A DNA stretch of 64,000 bases, from contig JBEKTW010000012.1 of the NCBI GenBank assembly GCA_049515655.1, positions 8,904 to 72,903 on the forward strand, in the 5' to 3' direction. Positions 13,370 through 64,000 of this stretch are shown here, piece by piece. Position numbers and translations under genes: made by a program. The first letter of the stretch is position 1. Every line of letters starts with the position of its first letter. A model generated the notes under the pieces. It ran no database searches. It saw only the letters and a program-made list of their open reading frames with translations, and was not told the origin of the DNA. This DNA is from Bacteroidota bacterium. Lineage in GTDB: Bacteria; Bacteroidota; Ignavibacteria; UBA10030; SZUA-254.

Positions 13370-14422
<1,053 letters not shown>

Positions 14423-14476
14423 AACCAAGCCGCGCGTGATGCACATCATAGAAGGAAACATCACATTCAAAAAGGC

Positions 14477-14505
14477 TTGACTTTCCCTGAAACTTTAGTT
14501 ATTAT
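14477..14505 (+). promoter_or_regulatory. sigma70-type promoter (TTGACT-N17-TATTAT) in front of the TetR/efflux island
   Basis: TTGACT at 14477-14482, a 17-nt spacer, TATTAT at 14500-14505. It lies 28 nt upstream of the TetR start, inside the AT-rich island. Confidence 0.45.
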
Positions 14506-14532
14506 TAGACCGTAAAACGATTTGAGTCGAAA

Positions 14533-15114
14533 ATGCCAGGACTGAGTAAAGACGATATTGTAAGAGCTGAAATCTTAAAAGCTGCAGAGCGCGTTTTCCA
14601 ACGATGGGGAAGCAAAAAAACCACGATGGATGATATTGCGGGCGAAGCAGGTAAGGGAAAGAGCACACTCTATTACTATTTTCAGAGCAAAGAAGAAATA
14701 TTTGATGCCGTAGTAATTGTTGAATTGGAAAGGATCTTTCGAAAGGCAAAAGAATTAGCACAAGAAACTGAAAATGCGAAAGAAAGACTGATCAAGTATA
14801 TCGTTGAGTCAATCAATGAAATGAAAAGCAGGATCAGCACCTTTACTATTATGCGGGAAGAAATTAAGCAAAACCAAAAATTTATTAGAAAATTACGTGC
14901 TATGATTCAGCCAAAAGAAGAACAATACATCAAGGCAATCTTAAAATCTGGTTTGGAAAGAAAGGAATTCACGTTTATTAATGAACGCGAACTAACGACT
15001 GCGGCAAAAACAATTACAGGAATGATGCATGCGCTTGAGCTCTATTTATTAGTAGAAAATGATGATACCTCTCAGATTGATATAGCAGCGCGACTTATCG
15101 CAAACGGACTTTAA
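14533..15114 (+). CDS. TetR/AcrR-family transcriptional regulator
   Basis: N-terminal helix-turn-helix (TTMDDIAGEAGKGKSTLYYYFQSKEEIF), length 193 aa, and position upstream of an RND efflux operon. AT-rich codon usage. Confidence 0.85.
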   Translation: MPGLSKDDIVRAEILKAAERVFQRWGSKKTTMDDIAGEAGKGKSTLYYYFQSKEEIFDAVVIVELERIFRKAKELAQETENAKERLIKYIVESINEMKSRISTFTIMREEIKQNQKFIRKLRAMIQPKEEQYIKAILKSGLERKEFTFINERELTTAAKTITGMMHALELYLLVENDDTSQIDIAARLIANGL

Positions 15115-15176
15115 ATTTTTTTATCAATAATTCGACCACAATACCATATTCGTCTAATGATCCAAAGGACTAAATT

Positions 15177-16214
15177 ATGAAAAATAAAGAGAATGTACTT
15201 GTCATCTTCTTTATTGGAATCGCATTTTCAGTGTGGGGTTGTTCCGGTAATTCAGGCAATCAAAATAATGCGACTATTAATGTACAGATCGAAAAAGTAA
15301 AACCCACCGACGCAAGTCAAGAGCTTGCTTACAGCGGCACCATAGAAGAATCCGAAACGATTCCGCTTAGTTTTTCTTCGGCAGGAACTGTATCGAAAGT
15401 ATATGTGTCCGAAGGAGTGTTTGTGAAGAAAGGGCAATTGCTTGCAACGCTGGATGATACAACGCACCAAAATGCCTATGCGATAGCGCAAGCGGCCGAG
15501 CAACAGGCAGAAGATGCCTACAAACGTTTAACACCGATGCATAAAAATGGCAATCTGCCGGATGTAAAATATGTAGAAGTGGAAACCGGTTTGCAGAAAG
15601 CAACGGCGGCGGCAGCAATAGCAAAAAAGAATTTGGACGCCTGCAATTTATGTGCAACAACTGAGGGCTATATCGGCAAACGATCAATAGAGCTCGGAAT
15701 GACCGCTACGCCGAACCTTGCCGCGATCACGATTGTGAAAATCAACAAAGTGCTTGCGCGTGTATCGGTTTCAGAAAACGAAATTGCTCTTATTCACAAA
15801 GGACAAAAGGCAAATATCACAATTGGCGCATTGAGGTCCGCGCACTATGACGGTGTGGTGGAAGAAATCGGTGTGGTTGCGGACCCAATAGTGCATACCT
15901 ATAAGATTAAGATCGGAATAACAAACAAGGATTTGTCCATAAAGCCGGGAATGATCTGTTCTGCAACCATTGAGAGCCCAAGCACAGTGCATGGTATGGT
16001 TGTTCCGAGCAGATCCGTTATGGTAGATGAGTTAGGAAAGAATTTTGTGTATGTCGTTTCATCACAGAATAAAGCAATGCGTAAATATGTTGTAACCGGT
16101 CAGTTGCTGAACGACGGTATTGAAGTGCTGGAAGGATTACAAATAAACGATGCGGTCGTTGTGGCAGGCCAGCATAAACTGATAGATAATGCATCTGTAC
16201 AAATTGAAAATTAA
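15177..16214 (+). CDS. RND efflux membrane-fusion protein (periplasmic adaptor, HlyD/AcrA family)
   Basis: Lipoprotein signal (FSVWGCSG). Coiled-coil/lipoyl and beta-barrel pattern (VSEGVFVKKGQLLATLD ... IKPGMICSATI). Sits directly upstream of the AcrB-like gene. Confidence 0.85.
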   Translation: MKNKENVLVIFFIGIAFSVWGCSGNSGNQNNATINVQIEKVKPTDASQELAYSGTIEESETIPLSFSSAGTVSKVYVSEGVFVKKGQLLATLDDTTHQNAYAIAQAAEQQAEDAYKRLTPMHKNGNLPDVKYVEVETGLQKATAAAAIAKKNLDACNLCATTEGYIGKRSIELGMTATPNLAAITIVKINKVLARVSVSENEIALIHKGQKANITIGALRSAHYDGVVEEIGVVADPIVHTYKIKIGITNKDLSIKPGMICSATIESPSTVHGMVVPSRSVMVDELGKNFVYVVSSQNKAMRKYVVTGQLLNDGIEVLEGLQINDAVVVAGQHKLIDNASVQIEN

Positions 16215-19200
16215 TGGCAAGCAGAGAGTACATAAGTATGAGAAAGAATGTGACATTGCTCGGAATGCTTCTGCGATACAAGCAGGTGATCTATATTTTC
16301 ACTGTCATTGCTATTCTTGTAGGAGTAGTGGCTCTCTTCCAGATGCCGCGCGATGAATATCCGACATTTACAGTACCAACAGGTCTTATCGTTGGTGTGT
16401 TCCCTGGCGCCTCTTCTCATCAGGTGGAAGAACAATTGACAACGAAAGCGGAGAATTATCTGTTCCAGTATAAGTCGGTTGACCGCGCCAAGACCTATTC
16501 CGTCTCCAAAGAGAACGTCATGCTCATCTACGTTCAGGTCTCAGATGCTGAAAAGGATAAGGATGGATTTTGGTTGAAATTGCGTCATGGCTTAAATGAT
16601 TTGAAACCAGAACTGCCCGCCGGAGTGACTTCTTTGACAGCGGATAACGATTTCGGCAGTACATCCGCCATGCTGCTCGCCGTTCAATCTGAAACGAAGA
16701 CATATAAAGAGCTTGAGAATTATATCAAGTCATTCGAGGATGATGTTCGTAAAGTGCCGTCCGTCTCCAAAGTGAAACATTACGGTTTGCAGAAAGAACA
16801 AATCAGCATTTACATGGATGATGCCAGGCTTGCTAATTATGGCATAAAACCAATCCAGGTTCTTGCCGCTCTTAAGCCGCAAAGCACGGTGAACTATGTG
16901 GGGGAGATAAATGATGGCAAATCTGTTCATCCGATCCATATTTCCTCAAACCTTAAAACCGAACAGGATGTAGCCAGCCAAATTGTTTATTCCGATCCGC
17001 CTGGCAATGTTGTACGCGTTAAAGATATAGCAAAAGTTGTGCGCGAATACGACGATATGGATTCTTATATCCGGGTTAATGGAAAGAAGTGCCTGCTTGT
17101 CTCGCTGGAAATGAAATCAGGGGAGAATGTTGTCCATTTTGGCGATGCAGTACAAAAGGCCATCGACAAGTTCTCTGTCATGCTCCCGCCTGATGTAAAG
17201 ATCATCACTATTTCCAATATCCCCGATGTAGTGAAGAAAGCTATTGCAAATTTTCTCAAAGAATTTGCCGTTGCAATGATAGCGGTAATAATGGTTACTA
17301 TCCTTCTGCTTCCGGTGAGAGTTGCTCGAATTGCAGCAATGGCAATTCCAACTTCAATTTTAACGGCTATCGGAATCATGTGGGCAAGCGGAATGGAGCT
17401 GCAGACTGTTTCGCTTGCAGGTTTAATTATTGTCCTTGGTATAACTGTGGATGATGCTATCGTTATAGTCGATAATTATGTAGAGAAGCTGGATCAGGAT
17501 ATGACCCCGTTTGATGCAGGAACAAAAAGCGTGACTCAACTATTCAGCTCAGTGCTTTCCGCTACGCTTATCATCATAGCGTGTTTTATGCCGATGCCGT
17601 TATTTATGACCGGTCAAGGTGCCGAGTTTCTCCAGTCACTTCCGATGACCATTACGTATGCACTGCTCGTTTCATTGCTGCTTTCAGTCTCTGTAATACC
17701 GTTATTAAGCTACACATTCATTAAAACAGGTTTAAAAGACAATTCATCAAAAAAGGGGAAAACGACATTCCTCGATAAACTTCAAAAATTCTATAACGGA
17801 GTCCTGGAGGAAGCATTCAGATGGAAAAAAACGGTTGTCCTTGTAGGTTGTCTTTCGTTCATCGCAGGAATTGTATTGATTGCGATTACTCCGCAGCAGT
17901 CATTCCCAAAACTTGAAAGGAACCAGTTTGCAGTGGAAGTATTTCTGCCCACCGGAAGTTCCCTGCAGAAAACGGATTCGGTAATGACAGATCTTGAAGC
18001 AATACTCCAAAAAGACCCCCGCGTTCGGGATGTGACGTCATTTATTGGAACGAGCTCGCCTCGTTTTAATGCTCTCTATGCGCCCAATTTTCCTGCAAAG
18101 AATTATGGCCAAATGGTTGTAGTAACGGAATCAAACAAGGCTACTGTTGAGATTCTTGACGAGTACAGCAAGAAATTGGAAGGCAAGTATCCCCTCGCCA
18201 ATATAAAATGGAAGCAATTGGCGTTCGAAATATTCAAGGCTCCGATCGAGATCCGTATTTCGGGAGATAGCATCCAGACCATCAAACAGACGGCAAATCG
18301 TGTCTCTGATATTTTACGCCAATTCAAGGATGTCGAATTCATACGCACCGATTATGAACAGCCGCTGCAATTCGCCGATCTGGTCGTAAAGAGAGATGAA
18401 GCAGCCCGGCTTGGTTATTCGAATACGCTTTTGGCTTATTCGTTGATGGTTGGGACCAAAGGATTCCCGGTCTCGACCGTATGGGAAGGAGATTATCCCG
18501 TTGATGTGAAGTTGAAGATCAATAAAAAGACCAAATCCAGTCCCAGCGATATCATGAATCAATACGTGACTTCTCCGTTCATGGTTTCTTCTGTTCCGGT
18601 TCGTCAGTTGGCAACGATAAAGCCAGGTTGGACAGAAGGAGAAATCGTGCGGCGCAACGGGATACGCACCGTAACTGTTTTTGCAGAAATAAAAAGAGGA
18701 TTACTTCCTGCACCGATATTCAATAGAATCAGACCTCTTGTCGATAAAATGGATCTGCCTTCCAGCGTCTTCATAGAATACGGCGGCGACTATCAAATGA
18801 GCGATGAGAATATTACACCGTTCTACTATTCACTGCTTGTTTCCGTTACTATAATTTTCCTCATTTTGATGTTTCAGTACAAAAACATCAAAACGTCGCT
18901 TTTGATCATGGTGACGCTTCCGTTAAGTGTGTTCGGCGCCGCGTTTGGAGTGTTTGTAACAGGATATCCATTCGGAACAACGGCCTTCATCGGATTGATT
19001 GGTTTATTTGGAATCGTCGTCCGTAATGGTGTAATATTTGTCTCGTATGCAGAGGAACTTCGTCATGAACACGGACTCACGCCGGGAAAAGCAGCAATCT
19101 TGGCAGGTAGGAGAAGAATGCGTCCCATATTTCTTACGTCAGCCGCTGCCGCAGTTGGCGTTATCCCAATGATTGCAAGCCGTTCATCACTTTGGGGACC

Positions 19201-19327
19201 GCTTGGTACGGTCCTTTGTTTCGGTCTGCTCTTCGCACTTGTGTTGTCACTGCTGGTTCTCCCGGTGCTCTATTATTACTTCCATCGAAATGATTTTGAC
19301 AAAGTTGAAGAAGGTGAGACATTATGA
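16214..19327 (+). CDS. RND family efflux transporter (AcrB/HAE1-like inner-membrane pump)
   Basis: 1037 aa with 12 predicted TM segments and two large periplasmic loops. Typical RND motifs (GLIIVLGITVDDAIVIVDN..., LIGLFGIVVRNGVIFVSY). The ATG overlaps the stop of the membrane-fusion gene. Confidence 0.9.
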   Translation: MASREYISMRKNVTLLGMLLRYKQVIYIFTVIAILVGVVALFQMPRDEYPTFTVPTGLIVGVFPGASSHQVEEQLTTKAENYLFQYKSVDRAKTYSVSKENVMLIYVQVSDAEKDKDGFWLKLRHGLNDLKPELPAGVTSLTADNDFGSTSAMLLAVQSETKTYKELENYIKSFEDDVRKVPSVSKVKHYGLQKEQISIYMDDARLANYGIKPIQVLAALKPQSTVNYVGEINDGKSVHPIHISSNLKTEQDVASQIVYSDPPGNVVRVKDIAKVVREYDDMDSYIRVNGKKCLLVSLEMKSGENVVHFGDAVQKAIDKFSVMLPPDVKIITISNIPDVVKKAIANFLKEFAVAMIAVIMVTILLLPVRVARIAAMAIPTSILTAIGIMWASGMELQTVSLAGLIIVLGITVDDAIVIVDNYVEKLDQDMTPFDAGTKSVTQLFSSVLSATLIIIACFMPMPLFMTGQGAEFLQSLPMTITYALLVSLLLSVSVIPLLSYTFIKTGLKDNSSKKGKTTFLDKLQKFYNGVLEEAFRWKKTVVLVGCLSFIAGIVLIAITPQQSFPKLERNQFAVEVFLPTGSSLQKTDSVMTDLEAILQKDPRVRDVTSFIGTSSPRFNALYAPNFPAKNYGQMVVVTESNKATVEILDEYSKKLEGKYPLANIKWKQLAFEIFKAPIEIRISGDSIQTIKQTANRVSDILRQFKDVEFIRTDYEQPLQFADLVVKRDEAARLGYSNTLLAYSLMVGTKGFPVSTVWEGDYPVDVKLKINKKTKSSPSDIMNQYVTSPFMVSSVPVRQLATIKPGWTEGEIVRRNGIRTVTVFAEIKRGLLPAPIFNRIRPLVDKMDLPSSVFIEYGGDYQMSDENITPFYYSLLVSVTIIFLILMFQYKNIKTSLLIMVTLPLSVFGAAFGVFVTGYPFGTTAFIGLIGLFGIVVRNGVIFVSYAEELRHEHGLTPGKAAILAGRRRMRPIFLTSAAAAVGVIPMIASRSSLWGPLGTVLCFGLLFALVLSLLVLPVLYYYFHRNDFDKVEEGETL

Positions 19328-20664
19328 AAAAGTACATTGTAATTTGTTTTCTCTTGGTTGTCACACTTCCTGTCTGTGCACAGCAGGTGCTGACATTGGA
19401 TGAAAGTAAACAACTTGCGCTGCAAAATAACGCCAGGATAAAAAATTCTTCTTTGGAAATTGAAGCATCCCGGCAAACGCGGAAAGCGGCGGTGACAAAA
19501 TATTTTCCGTCGATTAGCGCAAGCGGGGCCATGTTTGAATCGCAGAAGGACCTGATGGAAATATCTACAAATGGTGGTAATCTTCCTGTTTATGACGGGA
19601 ATCCGGCGCACCTCTCAGCTGCGACAGAGTATGCGTATATGCCTGCATCAACAATGGGTTTGTTGAAATCCGGCACATTCGGCATGCTCACTGCCGTGCA
19701 GCCGATCTTTGCCGGAGGCAGGATATGGAACGGCAATCGCCTGGCGTCGCTGGGCGAAGATGTGAGCGAATACAAGAATCGGCTTTCTCAGAACGATGTA
19801 CTTCTGAAAACTGAAGAGCAATACTGGTTGGTTGTTTCTCTGAATGAAAAATTCAAGACCATCCAGCGGTACGAAGAGCTACTCAACAGTTTGCTGGCGC
19901 AGGTGGAAGATGCCTACCGGTCAGGCATAGTGATGAAGAACGATGTGCTCAAAGTAAGAGTGAAGCGAAGCGAGGTTTTGCTCAACAAATCAAAATTAGA
20001 AAACGGGCGAAAGCTGGCTACGATGGCATTTTGCCAGTATATCGGAATACCATACGATTCGACGCTGGCGCTCAGAGATTCCTTGTCGCTCGAAGGTTCT
20101 CCGGAATCGTATTATGTGGAACATACTGAAGCGCTGAAGAACAGATCGGAGTATCAATTGCTCCAGGCATCTGTAACATCAGAAGAATTGCAGAGCAAGA
20201 TGAAGCTCGGAGAATATCTTCCCCAGATCGGCGTAGGTGTCACAGGACTGTACATGAAATTGGATGAAAGCCAGGACAGAACGCTGGGAATGGTCTTTGG
20301 AACGGTTTCCATTCCGATATCCGGCTGGTGGGAAGCCTCGCATGTACTGGAAGAACGAAGTATAAAAGAACAGATTGCGGAAAACAACATGAAGGACAAC
20401 TCCGAACTGCTCTTGCTTCAAATGCAAAAAGCGTGGCAGGATTTCACTGATGCATACAAACAGGTACTGCTAAGTGAAGAAGCACAAACACAGGCAGAGG
20501 AAAATCTGAAAGTCAATCGAGACGGTTATGATAACGGCATGATCTCGGTTGCCGATTTGTTGGAAGCGCAGGCGCTGGAACAACAATCACAAGATGGGTT
20601 AATCGATGCGAAAGCAAATTACGTTACGAAAAAGACAACGTATCTGCAGGTCACGGGCAGATGA
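19324..20664 (+). CDS. TolC-like outer-membrane efflux protein (OMF)
   Basis: Signal peptide. Two coiled-coil repeat halves with outer-membrane-factor signatures (LTLDESKQLALQNNARIK; LLEAQALEQQSQDGLIDAKANY). 4-bp overlap with the RND gene. Confidence 0.85.
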   Translation: MKKYIVICFLLVVTLPVCAQQVLTLDESKQLALQNNARIKNSSLEIEASRQTRKAAVTKYFPSISASGAMFESQKDLMEISTNGGNLPVYDGNPAHLSAATEYAYMPASTMGLLKSGTFGMLTAVQPIFAGGRIWNGNRLASLGEDVSEYKNRLSQNDVLLKTEEQYWLVVSLNEKFKTIQRYEELLNSLLAQVEDAYRSGIVMKNDVLKVRVKRSEVLLNKSKLENGRKLATMAFCQYIGIPYDSTLALRDSLSLEGSPESYYVEHTEALKNRSEYQLLQASVTSEELQSKMKLGEYLPQIGVGVTGLYMKLDESQDRTLGMVFGTVSIPISGWWEASHVLEERSIKEQIAENNMKDNSELLLLQMQKAWQDFTDAYKQVLLSEEAQTQAEENLKVNRDGYDNGMISVADLLEAQALEQQSQDGLIDAKANYVTKKTTYLQVTGR

Positions 20665-20735
20665 CTGATAATCGGCATCGAACCGACAAAATGAAGAAAC
20701 ATGAAAGAAAGACTCGAGAAAAAGCGGAGACAAGT

Positions 20736-21593
20736 ATGAGACCGCTGTTTCTGAGTATTTGCAGCCTGATCATTCTATGTGTGCAAACTGCGGGCTCTTC
20801 TGTCATTCTTACCGATGTGCAAACCATAACGGGGGATTCCGATGACTGTCAGCGCACAATGATATGCCCGGGCGAAGAACTGATATACGAGGTAAGTTGG
20901 TTTGGGGTCGGATTGGGGCAGATCCGGCTTCAGACCCGGGAACCAACGTGGAATGATGGAGAACGGCGCCACCATGCCACAGCGGTCATAGATTCTTACA
21001 AGGGTCTGCCGTTTGTCAGTGTGCATGCCCGGGATTACACGGAGATGGATTCGAACTTTAGTTCCCGTCGGTGTCGGTCGTTTGAAAAAAATGATGGATA
21101 CTGGCTTGGTGAGAATTATTACTACCTCATCCCTGAAAAGATCCTCGTTGTCGAAAAAACCAAACATGAAACTCTCTCTTCTCCTCCTGCAGAACGAGCG
21201 ACATATGATACGTTGCGAATCACCGACTCGTGGTTTGAGGATGGGCTTTCGCTTGTCTACTTCGCCCGTGCGAATGTCCATCGTCGAGATACTCTCCGTG
21301 CACCGACGATCGTCTACGGGAAAGTGGGCGCGACAAACTTCTACTTCACTGCTCAGAACACAACCGAAGAGATTGGCGCTCTCAAGAATCCCGTAAGAGT
21401 TATCGAGTTTGCCGGTAAAGCGGAGTTTGCCGGGATCTTCGGTCTCACCGGTGATTTCAAGGGTTGGTTCAGCGACGATGAAGCAGCGGCGCCAATCAAA
21501 GCAGAGATGAAAGTGCTCATTGGAAACATAACAATCGAGTTGATACAGTGGAAACGTCATAACTGGAATCCACCTACAGTGCTCGAACGGTAA
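20736..21593 (+). CDS. secreted hypothetical protein, DUF3108-like
   Basis: Signal peptide from the internal ATG (MRPLFLSICSLIILCVQTAG). GEELIYEVSWFGVGLGQIRLQT is reminiscent of DUF3108. The track's N-terminal extension (start 20661) was rejected. Confidence 0.45.
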   Translation: MRPLFLSICSLIILCVQTAGSSVILTDVQTITGDSDDCQRTMICPGEELIYEVSWFGVGLGQIRLQTREPTWNDGERRHHATAVIDSYKGLPFVSVHARDYTEMDSNFSSRRCRSFEKNDGYWLGENYYYLIPEKILVVEKTKHETLSSPPAERATYDTLRITDSWFEDGLSLVYFARANVHRRDTLRAPTIVYGKVGATNFYFTAQNTTEEIGALKNPVRVIEFAGKAEFAGIFGLTGDFKGWFSDDEAAAPIKAEMKVLIGNITIELIQWKRHNWNPPTVLER

Positions 21594-21626
21594 CTGCAGT
21601 CTCCTCATGAGACGAAGTATCTGTGT

Positions 21627-22541
21627 ATGTCAGCGATAGAATCAACGCTTAAATCTCGCGAAACGGAAGAGACGCTCGATATCTATTTTTATCGTCCGTG
21701 CGGCTACGTTGTTGCTCTCGCAGCCCGATGGATTGGCTTGACTCCGAACATGCTGACCGTACTTGGTGCGCTGATCGGGATAACTGCCGGACACCTTTTC
21801 TTCTATAACGATCTGACTATCAATCTTGTCGGAATTGGTCTGTTGCTCTTTGCGGAGACGATAGACAGTGCGGATGGACAGCTGGCAAGAATGACACAGA
21901 ACTTGTCGAAGCAGGGACGAATTCTTGATGGTCTCGCCGACAGTCTAAAATTCATCAGCATCTATTTACACATCTGTGCGCGTATTGTTGTGGCAACACA
22001 ATGGTGGTGGATTATTCTGATTGCTGTCCTTGCCGGAGTGAGCCATTCATTTCAAAGCGCGATTGCAGATTATTATCGAACGGCATATCTCTATTTCGTT
22101 GTGAATCCAGCGCATAACGATCACGAAAGCTCTCACAGCATTCTACAAATGTACAATACTCTTTCATGGAAAAAAGAACTCTGGACGAAGCTCTGCACGC
22201 GCTTGTATCTCAACTATACGGTTCAACAGGAATCGCTGACCCGGAGTTTTCGTGCATTGGAAGAAAAAACTGCACAACAGTTCGGCAACGATATTCCGGC
22301 GTGGTTTCGAGAAGCATTCCGGAGGAAAAATAGACCGATGATCAAATATTACAACATCTTGACGACGAATACCCGGATGATAGTGTTGATTCTCGGCATA
22401 TTTATCGATCTGCCGTGGATCTATTTTGCATTTGAATTGATCGTGCTGAATTTGCTGTTGGCTGCCGTGCTGTTCTATCAAAATATCATCAACATGTCGT
22501 TGCTAACGCTGGTGCAGACGGAACATGGAGAAACCGAATGA
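21627..22541 (+). CDS. CDP-alcohol phosphatidyltransferase family membrane protein
   Basis: Signature D-G-x2-A-R-x8-G-x3-D-x3-D is present as DSADGQLARMTQNLSKQGRILDGLADSL. Multiple TM helices. Confidence 0.7.
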   Translation: MSAIESTLKSRETEETLDIYFYRPCGYVVALAARWIGLTPNMLTVLGALIGITAGHLFFYNDLTINLVGIGLLLFAETIDSADGQLARMTQNLSKQGRILDGLADSLKFISIYLHICARIVVATQWWWIILIAVLAGVSHSFQSAIADYYRTAYLYFVVNPAHNDHESSHSILQMYNTLSWKKELWTKLCTRLYLNYTVQQESLTRSFRALEEKTAQQFGNDIPAWFREAFRRKNRPMIKYYNILTTNTRMIVLILGIFIDLPWIYFAFELIVLNLLLAAVLFYQNIINMSLLTLVQTEHGETE

Positions 22542-22607
22542 AGCATCAGGATAATAACATGTCGAGTCACACTGCTGGCATTTAGGAACTGATGGGACCC
22601 AGCCTAG

Positions 22608-22838
22608 GGAACACCTGATGCTGGTGGGCAGCGGTTCCGCCAAAGGAGAATTCACTGCTCTGAGGCAAAGGAGAAATTCTACGTGAACATAGATCGTAGG
22701 GCAAATACCTCGGCAGCATCGATTCCTATTGCCATGGTTGATGCCCGGAACGAAGGCAGACTCAAGAACGGGGATATAGTTGTACTGGCAGGTTTTGGCG
22801 CTGGATTAACATGGGGCGGTGTCGCAATGAAGTTTTGA
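22608..22838 (+). pseudogene. fabH: 3'-terminal remnant of fabH (3-oxoacyl-ACP synthase III); the 5' part is absent
   Basis: Translates to ...FYVNIDRRANTSAASIPIAMVDARNEGRLKNGDIVVLAGFGAGLTWGGVAMKF*. This matches the conserved FabH C-terminus (..DRYGNTSAASIPLAL..G.IK.GD..LL.AFGGG.TWG), with YG degraded to RA. An in-frame stop lies at 22605 immediately upstream, and nothing encodes the N-terminal 270 aa. Confidence 0.55.
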
Positions 22839-23034
22839 CTAATGTTCAGATCCCATTGATAACGAAGCCAACCTTTGCCTCGTATATTAGGCCATCCCGT
22901 CTTTGAGACCCTCGTGCGTGCGCTTGTCCCCTCCCAAGTGCAAGCATAACTCAGACCCCTGTTAGCGGCATAAGTTGGACGGTTTGTTCGTTTGGATCAG
23001 ATTAGCATCGAAACCGGCTGCATCACCCCTCCGG

Positions 23035-23120
23035 CGCCCCTACCACCTACGACCTATCACCTGTAACCTACTACCCACACCCTATCACCCACAACCTACC
23101 TCCTGCCACCACTTCGCCGG
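23035..23120. repeat. strand-asymmetric C/A/T-rich degenerate tandem repeat (CCTAYCACC-like units)
   Basis: The stretch cctaccacctacgacctatcacctgtaacctactacccacaccctatcacccacaacctacctcctgccacc has almost no G on the top strand, so the complement is G-run rich. Confidence 0.4.
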
Positions 23121-23178
23121 GAACATTCCCTCCTTTCGAAGAGTAAAAGGAGTAAGCAAGTGACATTATGCAAAGGAT

Positions 23179-23325
23179 GTTCGATGTCCAAAATCCGAAG
23201 CACAAAATTCGAAATCATAAACAAAACCTAAGCTCGAAACCCTAAATTCAAAAAAGGCGGAATTGGGTATTTGGACATTCGGATTTAGGATTTGTTTAGA
23301 GTTTAGTTATTCGGATTTCGGATTT
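23179..23325. repeat. A-tract-phased repeat element (modules X and Y, AAATCCGAA / TTCGGATTT motifs), copy A
   Basis: Module X at 23179-23250 (gttcgatgtccaaaatccgaagcacaaaattcgaaatc...). Inverted module Y at 23277-23325 (attcggatttaggatttgtttagag...). X is homologous to the reverse complement of 31253-31327. Confidence 0.5.
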
Positions 23326-23428
23326 ACTTAAGTTTCACGTATTCGTATGTGGAATTTTTCACTAAAAACTATACCTCTGCGTAAGATCACTAAATGACTT
23401 TCATTCACTCTATCGAAAGGGTCCCGCG

Positions 23429-24775
23429 ATGAAATACTACCCGTTGTACGTACTGGTTGCAGCGTGCCTGTTTCTTTTCAACGAAACGGGCAGGGCAATG
23501 TCGTTTCCCCCAGGCGGTGTCATCACGCTCAACGGAACATTGAATACGGGCTGCATTCCCCATAACGGCGGAACAGTCTACCTGCAGATTGAGCTCGATG
23601 CCCGAAACTTTCCGATGACTGCCGTTTGCCGCCACCCGATGAATATTGCCGTCGTTCTTGACCGCAGCGGTTCCATGGCGGATGCGCGGAAGATCGACTA
23701 TGCGAAAAAAGCGATCAATTCCCTTGTCGACGGTCTCTCGAGTGAAGATTACCTCTCGATCGTCATTTATGACGACCGGATCGATGTTCTTCTGCCGGCG
23801 CAGAGAGTTGTGAACAAGGAACGGATTAAGCGCATGGTCCGGGAAATCTATCCCCGCGGCTCGACGAATCTGGGCGGAGGAATGGTGGAAGGATTCCAAC
23901 AGATCGAAAGGAACTTCAGGAATGATTTCGTCAACCGGGTCATCCTGCTTTCTGACGGCCTCGCCAACACCGGCATCACCGACCCGCGGGAGCTCGACCG
24001 CATCGCCAGGACGTATCGCGATAGATCAATATCCCTGACCACGATGGGTGTCGGGTTGGAGTACAACGAAAATCTCATGCTCGGTCTCGCCGAGAACGGG
24101 GGCGGCAACTACTACTTCCTCGAGAGCCCGCACCAGATGGCGTCGATCTTCGAGCGCGAGCTCAACGGCATCGCCCTCGTCGTCGCGCAGAACGCGCACA
24201 TCGAGCTCACTCTCGCCGACCGTGTGACGTTGAATGATGCGGTCGGATGTGAATGGACCCATGAAGGGAATTCATGGATTCTTCCGGTCGGAGATCTCTA
24301 CGCGAACGCCCGCCGCGAGTTCACCGTCGAGTTGAGCTTACCTGAAGGAAGCGGGACGCGCCGTATCACAACCGGTGTCCTGAGGTACAGGGAGAAGAAC
24401 GGGTGGTTTGAGAACTATCCCCGGTTCTCCGTGGATATCCGTTACACTGACAACGCAGCGGAGCTCGAGAAGGGCAAGAACTGGGACACTCAGGCAAAGG
24501 TTGATGTGGCTCTTTCGACGCGCACGGTTGAGCGGGCGATGCAGGCACTCGACACGGGCCGCCGTGACGAGGCCTGCAAACAGTTGGAGGATGCGAAGGC
24601 GAAGCTGCTCTCCTCCCCCGCCATGCTGAACAGCGCCGCGGGTGCGCCGGCGATGAACGATCAAATCAAGCAGCTCGAGGAATATTCCCGGGATATCACA
24701 AGCGCCGCAGGCGACCTTCGCCGGGCCAAGAAGTCCATCCAGTACAACAACCACAAAATGCAGAAAAGCAAGTGA
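23429..24775 (+). CDS. secreted von Willebrand factor A (VWA) domain protein
   Basis: Signal peptide. MIDAS motif DRSGSM...S...T with a VWA fold (IAVVLDRSGSMADARKIDYAKKAI..LSDGLANTG). C-terminal coiled-coil region. Confidence 0.85.
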   Translation: MKYYPLYVLVAACLFLFNETGRAMSFPPGGVITLNGTLNTGCIPHNGGTVYLQIELDARNFPMTAVCRHPMNIAVVLDRSGSMADARKIDYAKKAINSLVDGLSSEDYLSIVIYDDRIDVLLPAQRVVNKERIKRMVREIYPRGSTNLGGGMVEGFQQIERNFRNDFVNRVILLSDGLANTGITDPRELDRIARTYRDRSISLTTMGVGLEYNENLMLGLAENGGGNYYFLESPHQMASIFERELNGIALVVAQNAHIELTLADRVTLNDAVGCEWTHEGNSWILPVGDLYANARREFTVELSLPEGSGTRRITTGVLRYREKNGWFENYPRFSVDIRYTDNAAELEKGKNWDTQAKVDVALSTRTVERAMQALDTGRRDEACKQLEDAKAKLLSSPAMLNSAAGAPAMNDQIKQLEEYSRDITSAAGDLRRAKKSIQYNNHKMQKSK

Positions 24776-31036: not shown

Positions 31037-31327
31037 TAAATCCGAATACCGAAACCGTAAACAAATCCTAAATCCGAATATCTAAACTCTAAATTCCGCT
31101 TTTCAGAATCCCGCTCCCCAGCGGAATCCAGAAGCGGGACAATTCCTAAATCTTAATATCCAAATTCTAAACAAGCACCAAGTCCCAGCATCTAAACCAA
31201 GACATCCAAAGAATCAAAAAAGGTTGTCGTTCTGATCGGTGTTTCGATTTTTGCATTTAGAACTTAGATTTTATTTAGGATTTCGGATTTCGTGCTTCGA
31301 ATTTATCTATGATTTTGGACATCGAAC
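31037..31327. repeat. A-tract-phased repeat element, copy B (module Y 31037-31100, internal hairpins, inverted module X 31253-31327)
   Basis: Shares the exact 21-mer aaacaaatcctaaatccgaat and the 12-mer ctaaactctaaa with copy A. The reverse complement of 31253-31327 (gttcgatgtccaaaatc...cgaagcacgaaatccgaaatc) matches module X of copy A, including an identical 17-mer. A TCCCGCT...AGCGGGA inverted repeat lies at 31109-31139. Confidence 0.5.
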
Positions 31328-31366
31328 GTTGCTTTACGTAACGTCACTTAATAATTTCATAGAGAT

Positions 31367-39087: not shown

Positions 39088-39102
39088 GGGTTCTTCTTTC
39101 GT

Positions 39103-39174
39103 TTGATAGTTCGATAGTTAAATAGTTCAATAGTTAGATAGTTGGATAGTTCAATAGTTCGATAGTTGGATCGT
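39103..39174. repeat. 8-bp-period tandem array (NNATAGTT) of about 9-11 units
   Basis: tgatagtt cgatagtt aaatagtt caatagtt agatagtt ggatagtt caatagtt cgatagtt ... It continues degenerately into the 3' end of the adjacent four-helix-bundle gene. Confidence 0.7.
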
Positions 39175-39597
39175 TCAGTCGTTTGGTGGTTTCTTCGTTG
39201 GATCGTCGGAGCGTTGTTTGTTCGATGCTGAGCCGTGTTCGCGAAGATACGCGATGAATGCATTCATGAGTTGTTTCGCTTCAGTTGCCAAATTGTAAAC
39301 GGCATCCATTTGTTCTTGCGTGACGTACTTGCGATCAAGCGCGAGGTTCAATTCAGACTGTACTTCGCTGGCTGAGCGGCGCGCAATCTTTAGAAACCGG
39401 ATGAATTCCGGATTATAGCCAGAATCGAAGCCCTCTGCTATATTGTGCATCACTGATCCTGCCGCCGCCTGAATCTGATCCCGTAGCCTAAAGTCTTTCG
39501 CAAATCGTGTTCCTTCAGTGAGATCATAGATCGCGTTTGCCAATTTCCGCGCCTTATGCCAACACTCTAGATCTTCAAAGTGTCTGATTGTCCCCAT
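39175..39597 (-). CDS. four-helix-bundle protein (23S rRNA intervening-sequence protein family, TIGR02436/PF05635-like), copy 1
   Basis: MGTIRHFEDLECWHKARKLANAIYDL...RDQIQAAAGSVMHNIAEG...FLKIARRSASEVQSELNLA matches the family consensus. The gene is AT-richer than its flanks. The track start at 39612 is a TTG. Confidence 0.8.
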   Translation of the reverse strand: MGTIRHFEDLECWHKARKLANAIYDLTEGTRFAKDFRLRDQIQAAAGSVMHNIAEGFDSGYNPEFIRFLKIARRSASEVQSELNLALDRKYVTQEQMDAVYNLATEAKQLMNAFIAYLREHGSASNKQRSDDPTKKPPND

Positions 39598-40751: not shown

Positions 40752-40831
40752 TGTGAAATTCTCCTTTTGTTTTGATGATTACCATTTTCAAACACTCTAC
40801 TCAGGCTCTTGGCTGTTAGCCCTTGGATTAC

Positions 40832-41383: not shown

Positions 41384-41453
41384 AAAAACGTTCCATGATT
41401 GACGATGGATGATTGATGTCGGCCTTTAGCCCTTGGCTTCTGGCCTTTGGCAT
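41384..41453. repeat. low-complexity repeat (gatgattga units plus ggcctttagcccttggcttctggcctttggc)
   Basis: The reverse complement of 41811-41847 is about 85% identical to 41421-41451. The two flank four-helix-bundle gene copy 2 as inverted repeats. Confidence 0.6.
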
Positions 41454-41810
41454 TTAACTCTTAGAGATTTTCGATATCAGGGCGTTCGTCATCTTTTGCT
41501 CTGACGTCAGTAATCCTGCAACTTTTTCCACTTTCTCGGCTGGGACAAGACAGAGCTCTTGAAGAATCTGTATTTGAGTCTCAAGTTCAAACGCAGAGCC
41601 CATTGATAGCTCCAAGAATCTTTTGAATTCAATCTCACTATTTCTGCTACAGCCTTCTGCGATATTGGACGGAATTGAAACTGCGGCCCTGCACATTTGA
41701 GCCTTCAATCCGTACTGTTCTTCTTTCGGAAGTAATTTCGCAAGATCATACACTTGCTTCACAATCTCAATTCCATCCCTCCAAATAGTCAATTTTCTGA
41801 AGTCTCTCAT
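41454..41810 (-). CDS. four-helix-bundle protein (23S rRNA IVS protein family), copy 2
   Basis: MRDFRKLTIWRDGIEIVKQVYDLAKLLPKEEQYGLKAQMCRAAVSIPSNIAEGCSRNS..FKRFLELSMGSAFELETQIQIL is a textbook family match. About 43% GC. Confidence 0.85.
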   Translation of the reverse strand: MRDFRKLTIWRDGIEIVKQVYDLAKLLPKEEQYGLKAQMCRAAVSIPSNIAEGCSRNSEIEFKRFLELSMGSAFELETQIQILQELCLVPAEKVEKVAGLLTSEQKMTNALISKISKS

Positions 41811-44715: not shown

Positions 44716-44969
44716 TTTGATGTCCTCATTTACTATGGTTAATTGATATCAAGCTCTAAGGGGTTCTTCGTTCTTTGTCATTGGTTCTTAGTCATTGGTC
44801 ATTGCTCTCAGCTTTTGGCTCTTAGCTATTGGCTACCAGCTTCTGAATTCTGTCTTCTGTCTACTTGGTTCCTTGTTCTTTGTTATTGGTTCTTCGTTCT
44901 TTGTCATTCGTCACTGGTCATTAGTGCGTTGTTCCTGCTTCCGTCATCCATCTTCCATCATCCATCGTG
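44716..44969. repeat. modular low-complexity repeat (ttctttgtcattggtt..., ttttggctcttagctattggc, cagcttctgaattctgtcttctg)
   Basis: Same orientation and same modules as 45438-45543, making direct repeats that flank the CoA-binding gene. Confidence 0.6.
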
Positions 44970-45437: not shown

Positions 45438-45543
45438 TGGTCATTGGTTCTTGCTTTTGGCTTTTGGCTTTTGGCTATTAGCCATTGGCCTTGGGCTGCC
45501 GGCTTCTGAATTCTGTATTCTGACTACTGGGCTTCTAATTGAC
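45438..45543. repeat. modular low-complexity repeat, direct partner of 44716-44969
   Basis: catgttctttgtcattggtcattggttcttgcttttggcttttggcttttggctattagccattggcc...ccggcttctgaattctgtattctg. Confidence 0.6.
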
Positions 45544-58398: not shown

Positions 58399-58436
58399 GC
58401 CCGGATGGCGGAATTGGCAGACGCGCTAGATTCAGG
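58399..58436 (+). pseudogene. tRNA-Leu(CAG)-like 5' half (acceptor stem, D-arm, anticodon stem-loop) lacking a 3' half
   Basis: GCCCGGA-UG-GCGG-AAUUGGCAGA-CGC-G-CUAGA-UUCAGGG matches E. coli tRNA-Leu(CAG) up to about position 38. No complementary anticodon-stem strand, variable arm, T-arm or 3' acceptor (UCCGGGC) follows within 1.7 kb. Confidence 0.45.
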
Positions 58437-58962
58437 GATGAAACCTCCTCCGCGAAAACCTTTCAAGCTAACTCACCTTCCAAGAAGTTTCACGTTCGCA
58501 TCTCCATCCGTTCCTAAAATGGGACTAGCGGACCTGGCATTCGTGTCATGGAATGTGTCCAAATTCGGGAATCCCACTCTAACATATTCGGAGCGACCCG
58601 AATTGTAAAACCAAAACTTGCATTTCACATGCGACATTTCGCGTCCGAGATGAATATTGACGTATTCTTTTACCATTCGTATCGAATCCGCCCTATCATG
58701 AGCAAATGGGTTTCCGCCTACGGTTCCCTTATAGGAATCATCTGCGAGACACCTGAATGAAACAATGAGAATTGAAAATAGAATTCTACTAGTCATTGCA
58801 TCTCCTACAAGAAGTTTCCATCTCAATGATAAATACGAAACTATATTTTGTCTAAATGGATTGATCAGTACTGCTACTCCGGAGGTGTTGGTGGTTTCGG
58901 TTCGATGCTTGCACGTCAGGTTGGGCACCTGGTTAGGTGGCCATCTAAAAGCCATCGTTTGA

Positions 58963-59529
58963 TTACCTACTGACTGATTCATATTCAGATCCGACCATTA
59001 GATCCATTGGATCCATCGAGACCTTGACGCAAAGGATTTGGAATATCGCCTTAGCATCCTCGAGGTAAATTTTCGCATTCCGGAAGTTTATCTCCTTTTC
59101 CCAATTGGTCATAGGCATTTGGGGGCACTCACCTTCTCGAAGAAACTGAGTACTCTCTGCTGTCATAGATTCCGTTTTGCCATGAGCAAGCGCATCGCGG
59201 AGTCGAAACATACGCTTAAAAGTTTGAAACGGTCTTTTACTAAAATCAATCTTTAGGCCAAATAGGTTGGCTAATAAGTCGAGCTTATCTGGAGGAGACA
59301 ATTTACGTTCAACGGAAGACCAAAACGTAGTTCTATTGGCTCCGACGTGATTGAGAAAAGCCTCGACAGTAAATGCAGAGAAGACCATGGAAGCGGAGAG
59401 CATGAGAGTGCTACCCGCATCTGTCTCCTTAGCTCGTTCATAACATTCGTAACTGACGGTTCGTAAGCGCGCGAAAGTATATACCGTCCTACGTGCACTC
59501 GTATGAACGCGTCTTTTATTAGTTTTCAT
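58963..59529 (-). CDS. hypothetical protein in an AT-rich islet, possible HEPN-like (R-x4-H) nuclease
   Basis: Internal ATG gives MKTNKRRVHTS...FKRMFRLRDALAHGKTES..., which contains an R-x4-H-G motif. AT-rich promoter-like sequence upstream. Function speculative. Confidence 0.35.
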   Translation of the reverse strand: MKTNKRRVHTSARRTVYTFARLRTVSYECYERAKETDAGSTLMLSASMVFSAFTVEAFLNHVGANRTTFWSSVERKLSPPDKLDLLANLFGLKIDFSKRPFQTFKRMFRLRDALAHGKTESMTAESTQFLREGECPQMPMTNWEKEINFRNAKIYLEDAKAIFQILCVKVSMDPMDLMVGSEYESVSR

Positions 59530-59648
59530 TATTGATACTTGATTACGTAAAATAATGGTTGTGGCCGCCGAACGAACCGGAGCTATGCTGCAACGAATTT
59601 GCCGACAGATATTTCCGTCTCGCTTGCGCCGCTGGTTTGGCAGCCCCA

Positions 59649-59981
59649 TTATTTATATAATGAAATATTCCATGGTGATTTATAATCTGTTCGCGTTGCC
59701 TTCCACCCACGTTTTAATTGCCCAAGTTGGATTATACTACTATCGAAAGCAACAAGATCTCTCAAACTCGATTCGACCGCTAGATCGATCCCTAACATCT
59801 CATTGGATAGAAATTGCCAATCTCCTTCTTGATCATGAAGTACGAAAAGAATAGGTCTTTTTTTATCGATAACTGATTGTTGTGTCACAACTATTGTTGA
59901 TGGCGGATCTTGGAATGACCATTCTGAAGTACTGGCACAACCAATGAGCAATGTTATCAAGAGTAACAGTCGTCGTTTCAT
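59649..59981 (-). CDS. small lipoprotein, immunity-protein-like
   Basis: Lipobox LLITLLIGCAS. The ILFVLHDQEGDWQFLSNE motif is reminiscent of DUF2185/Imm-type immunity proteins. About 43% GC. Confidence 0.45.
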   Translation of the reverse strand: MKRRLLLLITLLIGCASTSEWSFQDPPSTIVVTQQSVIDKKRPILFVLHDQEGDWQFLSNEMLGIDLAVESSLRDLVAFDSSIIQLGQLKRGWKATRTDYKSPWNISLYK

Positions 59982-60149
59982 TCGTTCTCCATTCTAAGCT
60001 TACTTAATGGACCGGAGCTAAGCTGCGATAACGGCCCATAGCGGTGACAACTGATTCGGCATCATAGATCGCTTGATGCATCGGGAGTTCTTTTTGCTCC
60101 TGACTTTTTCCTTTTTAAAGTGGTTAGGCAGCAGTGCCCGCGTCTTTCT

Positions 60150-60956
60150 CTAAGGTACAAGAAAACTGACGGTATTGCTCGGTATTGTTCCTATGTTTGG
60201 ATAGATTGTTTTTCCCGTAGCTGGGTCGGAATAACCTGTATCGAGAAAGTTGGTTCCATCATCGAAGTAAGTGCTGTTCGCGGAAGCATAAGCTATCAAG
60301 TATACGGTCGACCCACTGGAAATTCCGGCGCGATTAAATGTGCTGGAAGTAATGCTCGTTGAAATCGCAGTGGTTGATGTACCGGAACTCAAATAGGAAA
60401 AAAGAAACGTCGTAGGGTTAGAGGAGACCGAACTGCTCGTTCCAATGAAGAAGCGCACGTAATGGACATAACCTGCAGAAGGAGCTGAAGAAATTGAGCC
60501 AGAGATTGTTACGCTGCTTGTTGTGGGAGTTGCGACGAGACTGGATACTGTGAACGCCGGAATTGCCATTAAGAATTGACTGCGCCCATAAAACAGATCC
60601 CCGCCGCCAGTAAATCCCAATCCGATTCGTTTGTAAACCCCAAAGCCAGTTTTTGAGAAAGTGAGTGTGTAAGATCCAGTTGCGAGTTCCGTGATTGTCC
60701 ATTTCCCGCTAATGTCGCTCGTTGTTGCTTTGTCCGAGTTCTCCACGGTAATCGTAACAGTAGAATTGTCAGGTAACTTACGACCGTAATCGTCATACAG
60801 TGTAACATAGCCGATAAGATTGCCCGTCAACTTCGGACCAGCCGGACCCGTATCTCCCTTGAATTTGTCGCAAGAAGAAGAGCAAATAGAGAAAAACAAT
60901 AATACTAGCGACATCGCCGCTGGTGTGCCGAGCAGTCGTTGAACTGTGTGTTTCAT
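60150..60956 (-). CDS. Ser/Thr-rich lipoprotein with a short collagen-like G-x-y stretch
   Basis: Start at internal ATG (MKHTVQRLLGTPAAMSLVLLFFSICSSSC). GDTGPAGPK triplets. Long S/T-rich low-complexity regions. Confidence 0.5.
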   Translation of the reverse strand: MKHTVQRLLGTPAAMSLVLLFFSICSSSCDKFKGDTGPAGPKLTGNLIGYVTLYDDYGRKLPDNSTVTITVENSDKATTSDISGKWTITELATGSYTLTFSKTGFGVYKRIGLGFTGGGDLFYGRSQFLMAIPAFTVSSLVATPTTSSVTISGSISSAPSAGYVHYVRFFIGTSSSVSSNPTTFLFSYLSSGTSTTAISTSITSSTFNRAGISSGSTVYLIAYASANSTYFDDGTNFLDTGYSDPATGKTIYPNIGTIPSNTVSFLVP

Positions 60957-61075
60957 AGGAACCTTCCTTTCTTTGTGGAATGCGATGATCAAGGCACTGC
61001 TGCCTAACGGATGGCGGCTCAACTGCCCTACTGCGCATGCCCTATAGCATGTCGCTGTGTTGGGATGTGCTGCAC

Positions 61076-62923: not shown

Positions 62924-62953
62924 TGCATCATCTATTCTCCGTGCTGTGGATGA

Positions 62954-63880: not shown

Positions 63881-64000
63881 CTCTTTGCCAAGGTTGTGAA
63901 CGCCCCGATCGAAAAAGCCATAAGACTACCGCGACCTCTAGTTGAACGACAAAACCCGCCGTGCCATATACTTCAGCACAAGCGGGTTCTTTTTCGAACT

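Follow-up and report, generated by a model that had tools for sequence, protein, structure and literature searches.

Tripartite efflux pumps of the resistance-nodulation-division (RND) type, such as AcrR/AcrAB-TolC, TtgR/TtgABC, MexJK and TriABC, are built of a periplasmic adaptor, an RND permease with 12 transmembrane segments and a TolC-like channel, and have a TetR-family gene next to them. Another set of regulator and pump, tnfxB-tmexCD-toprJ, is borne by plasmids or by integrative and conjugative elements (ICEs) in Klebsiella and Pseudomonas, and the site-specific integrases adjacent to it are suspected of moving it (PMC7064769). Cis-mobilizable elements (CIMEs) are elements that retain attL and attR and have lost their integration and transfer genes (PMC6323972). 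The 64,000-nucleotide stretch of contig JBEKTW010000012.1 analysed here, called the window in what follows, carries a low-GC block with the same pump architecture between the host gene obg and a gene coding a VWA-domain protein (hereafter VWA). With a probability that we put at roughly 85%, this block is a ~9-kb island inserted between obg and VWA in the ancestor of a ~55%-GC clade that includes the organism of the window and its relatives L094 and L104/L105. The island would be made of two parts. Module A (14.47-20.66 kb) is probably a self-contained cassette of regulator plus pump with its own promoter and a TriC/MexK-like HAE1 permease. It would belong by composition to Ignavibacteria with 40-44% GC and move between lineages of that class; homologous recombination with outside alleles after its arrival would have turned it into a mosaic. 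Module B (20.7-22.84 kb) is probably an accessory lipid-synthesis unit of separate origin, whose fabH gene would be in the course of being lost by small deletions.

The locus departs from AcrR/AcrAB-TolC-type operons in that a single promoter precedes all four genes, which point the same way and start with that of the regulator, and in that its host is an uncultured Ignavibacteria-type organism. As with tnfxB-tmexCD-toprJ, a regulator and a tripartite RND pump have moved as a unit from a chromosomal home. That set went from Pseudomonas chromosomes to plasmids, whereas the present cassette has no adjacent integrases and no plasmid or viral relatives (no match to the plasmids of PLSDB in a blastn search with the whole cassette, and no relative among the viral contigs of IMG/VR searched with the RND protein). 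Its transfer stays within one environmental class, its regulator is of the TetR type and it has no link to clinical resistance. Classical low-GC genomic islands share with it the abrupt step in GC and in the GC content of third codon positions (GC3), the absence from relatives and the accessory cargo with a decaying gene; the window differs by having no tRNA, integrase or flanking repeats, and its island is old enough to be found in three related genomes, yet swaps alleles with the donor pool. The case is well supported as one of genuine but fairly ordinary gene transfer, in which the donors are lower-GC members of the same class.

A 1-kb sliding profile gave a GC content of 0.52-0.59 across most of the window. 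At ~14.45-14.5 kb it drops from 0.55-0.57 (0.565 in obg) to 0.38-0.45, and in the trailing part of the block it stays at 0.45-0.49 up to ~23.5 kb, where it is back at 0.57. Windowed GC and GC3 thus both bear out the abrupt discontinuity near 14.45 kb that had been described in an earlier note made from this DNA. Two values given there need correction: the host background measures ~55% rather than ~60% GC, and the island does not end at 22,541 but continues, with low GC reaching ~23.4 kb, to the start of VWA at 23429. On the basis of the obg-VWA adjacency in the relative L099 (see below) and of the GC profile, the entire inserted block was placed at 14423-23428 on the plus strand; it comprises module A, module B and trailing non-coding DNA. 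Its genes have a GC3 of 0.34 (tetR), 0.42 (the adaptor or membrane-fusion protein, MFP), 0.46 (RND permease), 0.52 (the outer-membrane protein, OMP), 0.52 (DUF3108) and 0.52 (the CDP-alcohol phosphatidyltransferase, CDP-OH), against 0.60-0.73 in the flanking genes. These include obg on the left, coding the GTPase ObgE (13427-14422, plus strand; Pfam GTP1_OBG and MMR_HSR1; GC3 0.70), and VWA on the right (23429-24775, plus strand; Pfam VWA; GC3 0.73). The tetranucleotide composition of the cassette deviates from that of the host as well, its signature having a correlation of 0.89 with the flanks of low-GC Ignavibacteria versus 0.79 with the host.

Comparison with related genomes shows the site without the island. 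The nearest relatives of the window's Obg are 95%, 81%, 80% and 79% identical, followed by proteins at 76% or less. Because those that are named come nearly all from metagenome-assembled genomes (MAGs) labelled Ignavibacteriae, Ignavibacteria or Bacteroidota, and because several window proteins bear sorting tails of the type IX secretion system (T9SS), the host is an Ignavibacteria-type member of the Fibrobacteres-Chlorobi-Bacteroidetes (FCB) group. In L099 (GCA_016209795.1), whose Obg is 75% identical, obg and VWA are separated by a gap of only 140 bp. This is a clean empty site: the order TPR-hyp-obg-140 bp-VWA...NusB...PBP (PBP, penicillin-binding protein) is syntenic with the window on both sides, with identities of 53% for TPR, 46% for the hypothetical protein hyp375, 66% for VWA, 64% for NusB and 73% for PBP. 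An empty site in relatives was among the checks that the earlier note had proposed, and it was found. L015 (Obg 72% identical, 54% GC) carries between the two genes a lipoprotein-like gene and an AbiEi antitoxin gene (L015 3339-4855), and in L106 (Obg 81%) obg is followed by a UPF0150/HicB-like gene (L106 1382-1654). The obg-VWA spacer, empty in L099 and filled differently in L015 and L106, is thus a variable slot that has received cargo repeatedly. Judged by these gene orders, the whole 9-kb block is most probably an insertion relative to the ancestral obg-VWA arrangement.

The island is shared by close relatives. One of them is represented by three assemblies (L094 from ENA, L095 from JGI and L096 from Logan) with the order TPR, hyp375, obg, TetR, MFP, RND, OMP, DUF3108, CDP-OH, FabH, VWA. 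This layout corresponds to the one of the window, and the obg-tetR junction was found once more on an independent Logan contig (L002); because of these recurrences, the island junctions are real and not an assembly artefact. The amino acid identity between window and L094 is 94%, 93% and 92% for hyp375, Obg and VWA in the flanks and, in the island, 93% for TetR, 83% for MFP, 89% for RND, 85% for OMP, 87% for DUF3108 and 90% for CDP-OH. L094 shows this dip of GC3 over the island genes as well. A third relative, L104/L105, carries OMP, DUF3108, CDP-OH, a fabH remnant and VWA. Insertion at the same site can be demonstrated in L094 and, at least on the VWA side, in L104. With at least two related genomes (L094 and L104/L105) carrying the island, its acquisition is not recent and probably precedes the split of the three lineages, whose flanking genes differ by a synonymous divergence (dS) of 0.26-0.42. 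All island genes are under purifying selection, with ratios of non-synonymous to synonymous divergence (dN/dS) of 0.13-0.26. The island is not present in relatives with an Obg identity of 81% or less.

The candidate donors were found among the species representatives of GTDB, where a scan with the RND protein identified 11 loci with an RND identity of 81-88%. Loci of sufficient length also contain the other three cassette genes, and the identity of TetR, MFP and OMP ranges from 55% to 89%. None of these 11 loci has obg upstream or module B downstream. L108, a further carrier (RND 85%), brings the count to at least 12 other Ignavibacteria-type genomes, most of them with 40-44% GC; for the cassette as a whole the protein identity is 75-89%. 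All close relatives of the cassette are in MAGs labelled Ignavibacteriota or Bacteroidota, one of them as Chitinophagaceae. In genomes of 40-44% GC the cassette has a GC content of 0.40-0.42, which is near that of its flanks (0.40-0.45), while in L011, whose flanks have 51-54% GC, it drops to 0.46, a dip like that of the window. The cassette flanks represent at least seven distinct contexts, and L108, where it lies next to a lipid cluster, adds an eighth. L003 (complete chromosome OY969585.1) and L012 carry cassette proteins that are 96-97% identical to each other within unrelated flanks. A large protein search delimited a discrete RND clade at 80% identity or more with ~23 clusters, below which lies a broad, Ignavibacteria-wide RND family at 63-70% identity. 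A search of the literature on Ignavibacteria, RND pumps and horizontal gene transfer found nothing specific.

Synonymous sites also speak for transfer. At sites of the four-fold type, housekeeping genes of the window are 78-81% identical to those of L094 and, for obg, VWA and PBP, only 25-33% identical to those of L099, which is saturation. The cassette genes of the window and of the low-GC copies are 68-84% identical at these sites for MFP, 59-70% for RND, 50-60% for tetR and 42-47% for OMP. In terms of dS, MFP and RND lie at 0.32-0.76 and tetR at 0.68-1.14; OMP is near saturation at 1.7-4.4, and the dS of housekeeping genes versus L099 is saturated. For the adaptor gene, the dS of 0.32 between the window and the 42%-GC carrier L005 is below the 0.52 that separates the window from L094 and similar to the dS of the window-L094 flanks, and its product is 83% identical to the one of L094 but 89% to the one of L005. 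Such a value appears incompatible with vertical descent between 55%-GC and 40-42%-GC genomes, and the gene phylogeny is discordant with that of the organism. In the Obg match list (the top 120 matches, all at 68% identity or more) no Obg above 76% identity bears an NCBI label, while all 11 cassette MAGs are NCBI records. Empty site, match of cassette and flank GC, and synonymous identity together uphold the statement of the earlier note that the host lineage acquired the block from outside, from donors of lower GC. A branching of the RND genes with the host lineage, which would have spoken against acquisition, holds only loosely, insofar as the donors are of the same class; it does not extend to the close relatives of the host.

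Some of these loci deserve separate mention. In the two higher-GC carriers L007 (1381-1959) and L011 (8306-8884) TetR shares only 55-57% of its residues with the others and its gene has a GC3 of 0.63-0.65, while MFP, RND and OMP are still 77-82% identical to those of the window, with a GC3 of 0.47-0.54; this suggests an exchange of the regulator or a much longer residence of it. Two overlapping or adjacent tblastn segments each were obtained for the RND gene in L011 (10001-13094) and for the OMP gene in L012 (13111-14452), possibly frameshifts due to pseudogenisation or to errors of MAG assembly. One RND homolog at 69% identity (P0274) comes from a deltaproteobacterial MAG with the label Smithellaceae, which may mean either that the pump family in the wider sense also passes from one phylum to another or that this contig was binned wrongly.

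The cassette of the window is a mosaic. In 300-nt windows its identity to L094 amounts to 90-97% in tetR and at the 5′ end of the MFP gene. Between ~15.45 and 16.35 kb the identity to L094 falls to 79-83%, versus 88-94% to L005, and a second discordant stretch is found at 18.9-19.6 kb. A maximum-chi-square scan delimited a recombinant segment at 15524-16318 (plus strand) that is nearer to L005 (42% GC) than to L094: 103 of its 130 informative sites pair the window with L005, and the chi-square of 121 compares with a permutation maximum of 22.3. Because of this L005-like segment, and because the OMP of the window is 96% identical to the one of L104 versus 85% to the one of L094, the cassette appears to have still swapped segments with outside alleles after its acquisition.

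Module A codes what is, judged by its protein families, a TetR-regulated tripartite RND pump of the HAE1 type. Its four genes lie on the plus strand. The first one (14533-15114) encodes a TetR-family regulator of 193 amino acids (aa) with a TetR-type helix-turn-helix domain at residues 14-60 (Pfam TetR_N, PF00440, E 7.9e-16; GC3 0.34) that is 93% identical to the protein of L094 and 75-81% to those of low-GC copies. It is followed by the gene for the periplasmic adaptor (15177-16214; 345 aa; TIGR01730 RND_mfp, 189.8 bits versus a cut-off of 94.9; Pfam HlyD_D23), which ends where the permease gene starts. The permease (16214-19327; 1037 aa, or 1029 aa from an alternative start at 16238) matches Pfam ACR_tran over its full length (PF00873, E 5e-170; residues 24-1024 against positions 10-1021 of the 1021-residue model). 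Its full-length matches in the PDB are TriC, MexK, AcrB and MexB, the nearest being TriC (6VEJ) and MexK at E ~1e-120. The cut-offs of the named NCBIfam multidrug subfamilies (RND_permease_1/_2, AcrB, MdtB/C etc.) are not reached; because even the best score (NF033617, 455.6 bits) is far under its cut-off of 1250, the permease is to be assigned, from its sequence, at the superfamily (HAE1-like) level only. The last gene (19324-20664) encodes a TolC-like outer-membrane factor of 446 aa with the two repeats of this channel family (Pfam OEP, PF02321, two stretches, E 4.5e-45). The gene identities proposed in the earlier note were all confirmed by domain matches (Obg, TetR_N, HlyD-type MFP, ACR_tran, two OEP stretches, DUF3108, CDP-OH_P_transf). 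The pump would export hydrophobic or amphiphilic compounds across both membranes at the expense of the proton gradient.

Several observations weigh against acquisition of the island by transfer. GC varies within the wider clade (~44% in L099 and L106, 52-54% in L015 and L107), and because of this spread part of the GC contrast reflects a rise of GC in the host lineage. At the level of the class the pump branches with the host's own group, as the RND family at 63-70% identity is common in Ignavibacteria. The distance between the donor MAGs and the host was judged from genome GC, from absent synteny and from the Obg match list. The usual hallmarks of mobility are missing from the borders of the window's island: the window has no tRNA gene, no integrase is found at the island borders, and direct or inverted repeats there are limited to short matches of chance quality. 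A repeat that brackets the cassette in some donors (repeat R, described below) does not occur in the window, nor in L094 or L108, even with 3-4 mismatches allowed. Finally, the GC3 of module B (~0.5) is intermediate.

Among the alternatives, the one that survives best concerns the route by which the cassette travels: it would be a discrete, integrase-less mobile unit flanked by att-like repeats (CIME-like), targeting the 3′ end of tRNA-Met and moved in trans by an integrase coded elsewhere, and the window would hold a copy trimmed at its ends. In L005 a 69-nt direct repeat, 78% identical between its two copies, brackets the cassette with a distance of 6,392 bp, and a matching arrangement with a spacing of 6,394 bp is found in L012. 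In L003 an intact tRNA-Met(CAT) gene (14565-14639, minus strand) provides the downstream repeat with its 3′ end, which faces the cassette, and the upstream repeat is a partial duplicate; the donor-type repeat R opens with the terminal 16-17 nt of the tRNA-Met 3′ end. In the 1.26 Mb of loci that were fetched, repeat R occurs only at cassette ends. Nothing but tetR, MFP, RND and OMP lies between the repeats, and neither inside nor beside the cassette copies was any recombinase, integrase or transposase found, the neighbours being ordinary chromosomal genes (coding a T9SS cargo protein, MsrAB, DUF116, aldo-keto reductases, an endonuclease, Fic, Omp85 and patatin). The cassettes of L003, L005 and L012 resemble CIMEs in these att-like repeats holding a tRNA 3′ end with no integrase between them, and they fit the CIME definition (PMC6323972); the present unit is only 6.4 kb long and consists solely of the pump operon. 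The 96-97% protein identity of the L003 and L012 cassettes within unrelated flanks also speaks for movement as a unit. However, the window itself has no att-like repeats, which are likewise absent from L094, L006, L007, L008, L009, L011 and L108. The downstream repeat of L005 and L012 is no tRNA, the arrangement is limited to three independent contexts, no cognate integrase, circular form or partner ICE was seen, and homologous recombination or natural transformation could equally explain the movement. In the window the trimming is exact: the cassette begins ~10 nt ahead of the -35 hexamer and ends with the stop codon of OMP, beyond which homology with the other copies is lost. A mobile unit of this kind is thus possible, at well below even odds. 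We regard as equally tentative its fullest version, a free-standing 6.4-kb mobile unit of a kind undescribed for efflux pumps, with ~70-nt tRNA-Met-derived repeats and with insertion and excision in trans at tRNA-Met or at repeat sites, that would have spread in wetland and soil Ignavibacteria while recombining within a shared allele pool, and of which the window would hold a trimmed and domesticated copy.

Module B follows the OMP gene on the same strand. Its first gene (20736-21593) encodes a DUF3108 protein (Pfam DUF3108, 31.7 bits versus a cut-off of 26). The second (21627-22541) codes the CDP-alcohol phosphatidyltransferase of 304 aa (Pfam CDP-OH_P_transf), whose homologs are found at 90%, 88%, 84% and 72% and then at ~50% identity. 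Those at 72% or less belong to a conserved lipid cluster of the inositol type with the order NTP-transferase, (MlaEFD), a hypothetical protein of 276 aa, aminotransferase, CDP-OH, GFO/IDH/MocA oxidoreductase, LPG_synthase_TM and HAD, with or without inositol-1-phosphate synthase; CDP-OH is paired with DUF3108 and FabH only in the clade of the window. The DUF3108 protein was considered as a possible equivalent of the 276-aa protein of that cluster and rejected, as the two have no similarity. The module ends with a fabH pseudogene (22538-22838, delimited by tblastn and by blastn versus L094) that keeps codons 1-15, 188-221 and 279-335, i.e., ~106 of 335, and does not give a full-length β-ketoacyl synthase III (KAS III). 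Its start codon and first 15 codons (22538-22582) overlap the CDP-OH stop, the C-terminal remnant is found at ~22,600-22,838, and the missing pieces of ~514 and ~178 bp are joined at the 6-nt microhomologies GCTGGC (22574-22579) and CAAAGG (22666-22671). In L094 FabH is intact (335 aa; NF006829, KAS III, 419 bits versus a cut-off of 249), the start of its gene overlaps the CDP-OH stop, so that the two are translationally coupled, and its GC3 of 0.44 is island-like. The L104 gene is broken by three different, smaller deletions. No fabH is found between obg and VWA in the island-free relatives L099, L015 and L106, and the window has no second copy. Since the gene is intact, coupled and island-like in L094, missing from the island-free relatives and disrupted by separate deletions in L104, it is accessory cargo of the island that decayed independently in two lineages.

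Arrival of both modules as one fragment, from a donor with the cassette beside a lipid cluster carrying the CDP-alcohol transferase, is an unlikely course of events. In its favour, the L108 cassette (RND 85%) lies ~7 kb from the CDP-OH gene that branches closest outside the copy of the window and its clade (72%), and both modules are absent from L099, L015 and L106. Order and orientation differ in L108, however, where the lipid cluster is divergent and has neither DUF3108 nor FabH. The CDP-OH protein is just 72% identical to the L108 copy versus 80-85% for the cassette proteins, the GC3 of module B (~0.5) is higher than that of module A, and no genome with a single module at the obg-VWA site was found from which the order of events could be determined. 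Two further observations may be added. Behind the OMP stop codon L094 has ~165 bp that the window lacks (window 20664-20736 versus L094 8871-9030), which puts the region upstream of DUF3108 against the OMP stop and creates a spurious long DUF3108 open reading frame (ORF) from 20661. The conserved Ignavibacteria-type lipid cluster, seen at L097 3547-15042, in L098, L102 and L103 and at L108 1-7519, also holds a short CDP-OH transferase after (MlaEFD), a class-III aminotransferase, a long CDP-OH transferase and a HAD phosphatase. This content suggests a pathway for an aminated inositol phospholipid.

The region upstream of tetR aligns across all 11 copies from the -35 hexamer onward. A predicted promoter, TTGACT-N17-TATTAT, is located at 14477-14505 on the plus strand (TTGACT at 14477-14482, TATTAT at 14500-14505), as the earlier note had stated, and matches the sigma-70 consensus at 10 of 12 positions. 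Such a match is no distinctive signal in itself: between 12 and 26 kb there are 18 sigma-70-like matches, five of them at 10 of 12 positions, versus 15.9 expected. The TTGA of the -35, most of the -10 and then the motif TTAGAC-N15-GTCGAA show little or no variation among the 11 aligned copies, and because sigma-70-like matches occur at chance frequency, the credibility of the promoter appears to rest on this conservation and not on the motif match. The Bacteroidota -7 motif TAnnTTTG was found in none of the host upstream regions of 70 nt or more, which gives no confirmation of the contrast drawn in the earlier note with other operons that would begin with leaders of the Bacteroidota type. The TTAGAC-N15-GTCGAA motif (14505-14531, plus strand) abuts the -10 hexamer with half-sites invariant in all copies and is a candidate TetR operator (O1). 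A second candidate, O2, is the same motif on the opposite strand (15131-15157, minus strand) in the tetR-MFP spacer, where TTCGAC...GTCTAA is invariant in 11 copies, as is the AAGG ribosome-binding site beside it. These are the only two matches to the operator-like motif in the 64 kb of the window, versus 0.34 expected. TetR dimers would bind both sites, the one abutting the -10 of the tetR promoter for autoregulation and the one ahead of the pump genes for pump control, and a hydrophobic or amphiphilic ligand would free the repressor.

A different account, built on this promoter and following the earlier note, has the island as a recent acquisition from a foreign lower-GC donor whose sigma-70 promoters are unlike those of the host, with an insertion that truncated a host fabH. 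Low GC, the 10 of 12 consensus match and the position of the fabH fragment next to the island agree with it, and it is nevertheless very improbable. The donors are of the host's own class and every copy of the cassette includes the promoter, which therefore gives no hint of another transcription apparatus. Being older than the split of three related genomes with a flank dS of 0.26-0.42, the island is not recent. As for fabH, which had been described as decapitated by an insertion or deletion event, it keeps its 5′ end in the window and has two internal deletions, is intact in L094, decayed independently in L104 and has an island-like composition; the intact host copy that this account would expect between obg and VWA in island-free relatives is found in none of L099, L015 and L106. 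The remaining possibility, that the operon is native and vertically inherited, with low GC due to gene-specific constraints (membrane proteins, low expression), is less credible still, since the wide occurrence of RND homologs at 63-70% identity in Ignavibacteria, the stable inheritance in three related genomes under purifying selection and a tetR-to-OMP GC3 gradient that is intrinsic to the cassette and seen in donors too are outweighed by at least eight different genomic contexts and by two lines of evidence that appear effectively to refute it, namely the clean empty site in L099 (with other cargo in L015 and L106) and the synonymous-site data (a GC3 deficit of 0.2-0.35 relative to neighbours that include the membrane-associated PBP, and an MFP/RND synonymous identity of 60-84% with genomes of 40-42% GC, for which vertically inherited genes are saturated).

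The trailing non-coding region of the block (22839-23428, strand not assigned) contains CCTAYCACC-type repeats at 23039-23108 and a stretch of ~235 bp rich in hairpins and repeats (23156-23390) that is missing from the otherwise collinear L094. Besides TTCGGATTT repeats, this stretch holds an imperfect long hairpin with arms at 23187-23215 and 23262-23290; it may be a small insertion resembling a miniature inverted-repeat transposable element (MITE). Degenerate periodic repeats of 7-14 nt are also found in many host intergenic regions, each with its own unit (e.g., CCTAYCACC, TTCGGATTT, AACTATC or GCCAAAAG): 23039-23108, 23187-23335, ~31250-31330, ~39100-39200, ~40760-40830, ~41400-41500, ~44720-44800 and ~45440-45540. 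They account for small GC dips at 30.5-31.5, 39-40 and 44.5-45.5 kb. A second long low-GC block is found at 58400-64000 on the minus strand (GC 0.43-0.49, GC3 0.41-0.50), where it codes secreted proteins with T9SS tails (Sortilin/BNR with Por_Secre_tail; CarboxypepD_reg-like) and two ORFs without family match; it may be another acquired region.

The acquisition of the obg-VWA island does not overturn current understanding, and its interest lies mainly in the nomadic, mosaic behaviour of the cassette and in the tRNA-Met-derived repeats of the donors. Leads for further work are the conserved candidate two-operator motif of an uncharacterised TetR, the tRNA-Met-derived repeat, which may mark a new small mobile unit, and an accessory lipid module of DUF3108, CDP-alcohol transferase and FabH in the course of decay. 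The locus provides a clean example of horizontal transfer within a class in an uncultured lineage, with an empty site, shared copies, a donor pool in which the cassette has native composition and a supported mosaic. It shows that environmental Ignavibacteria can pass among themselves, as one unit, a complete set of regulator and tripartite RND pump with neither plasmids nor visible recombinases involved, which is of relevance to how efflux capacity spreads outside clinical settings.

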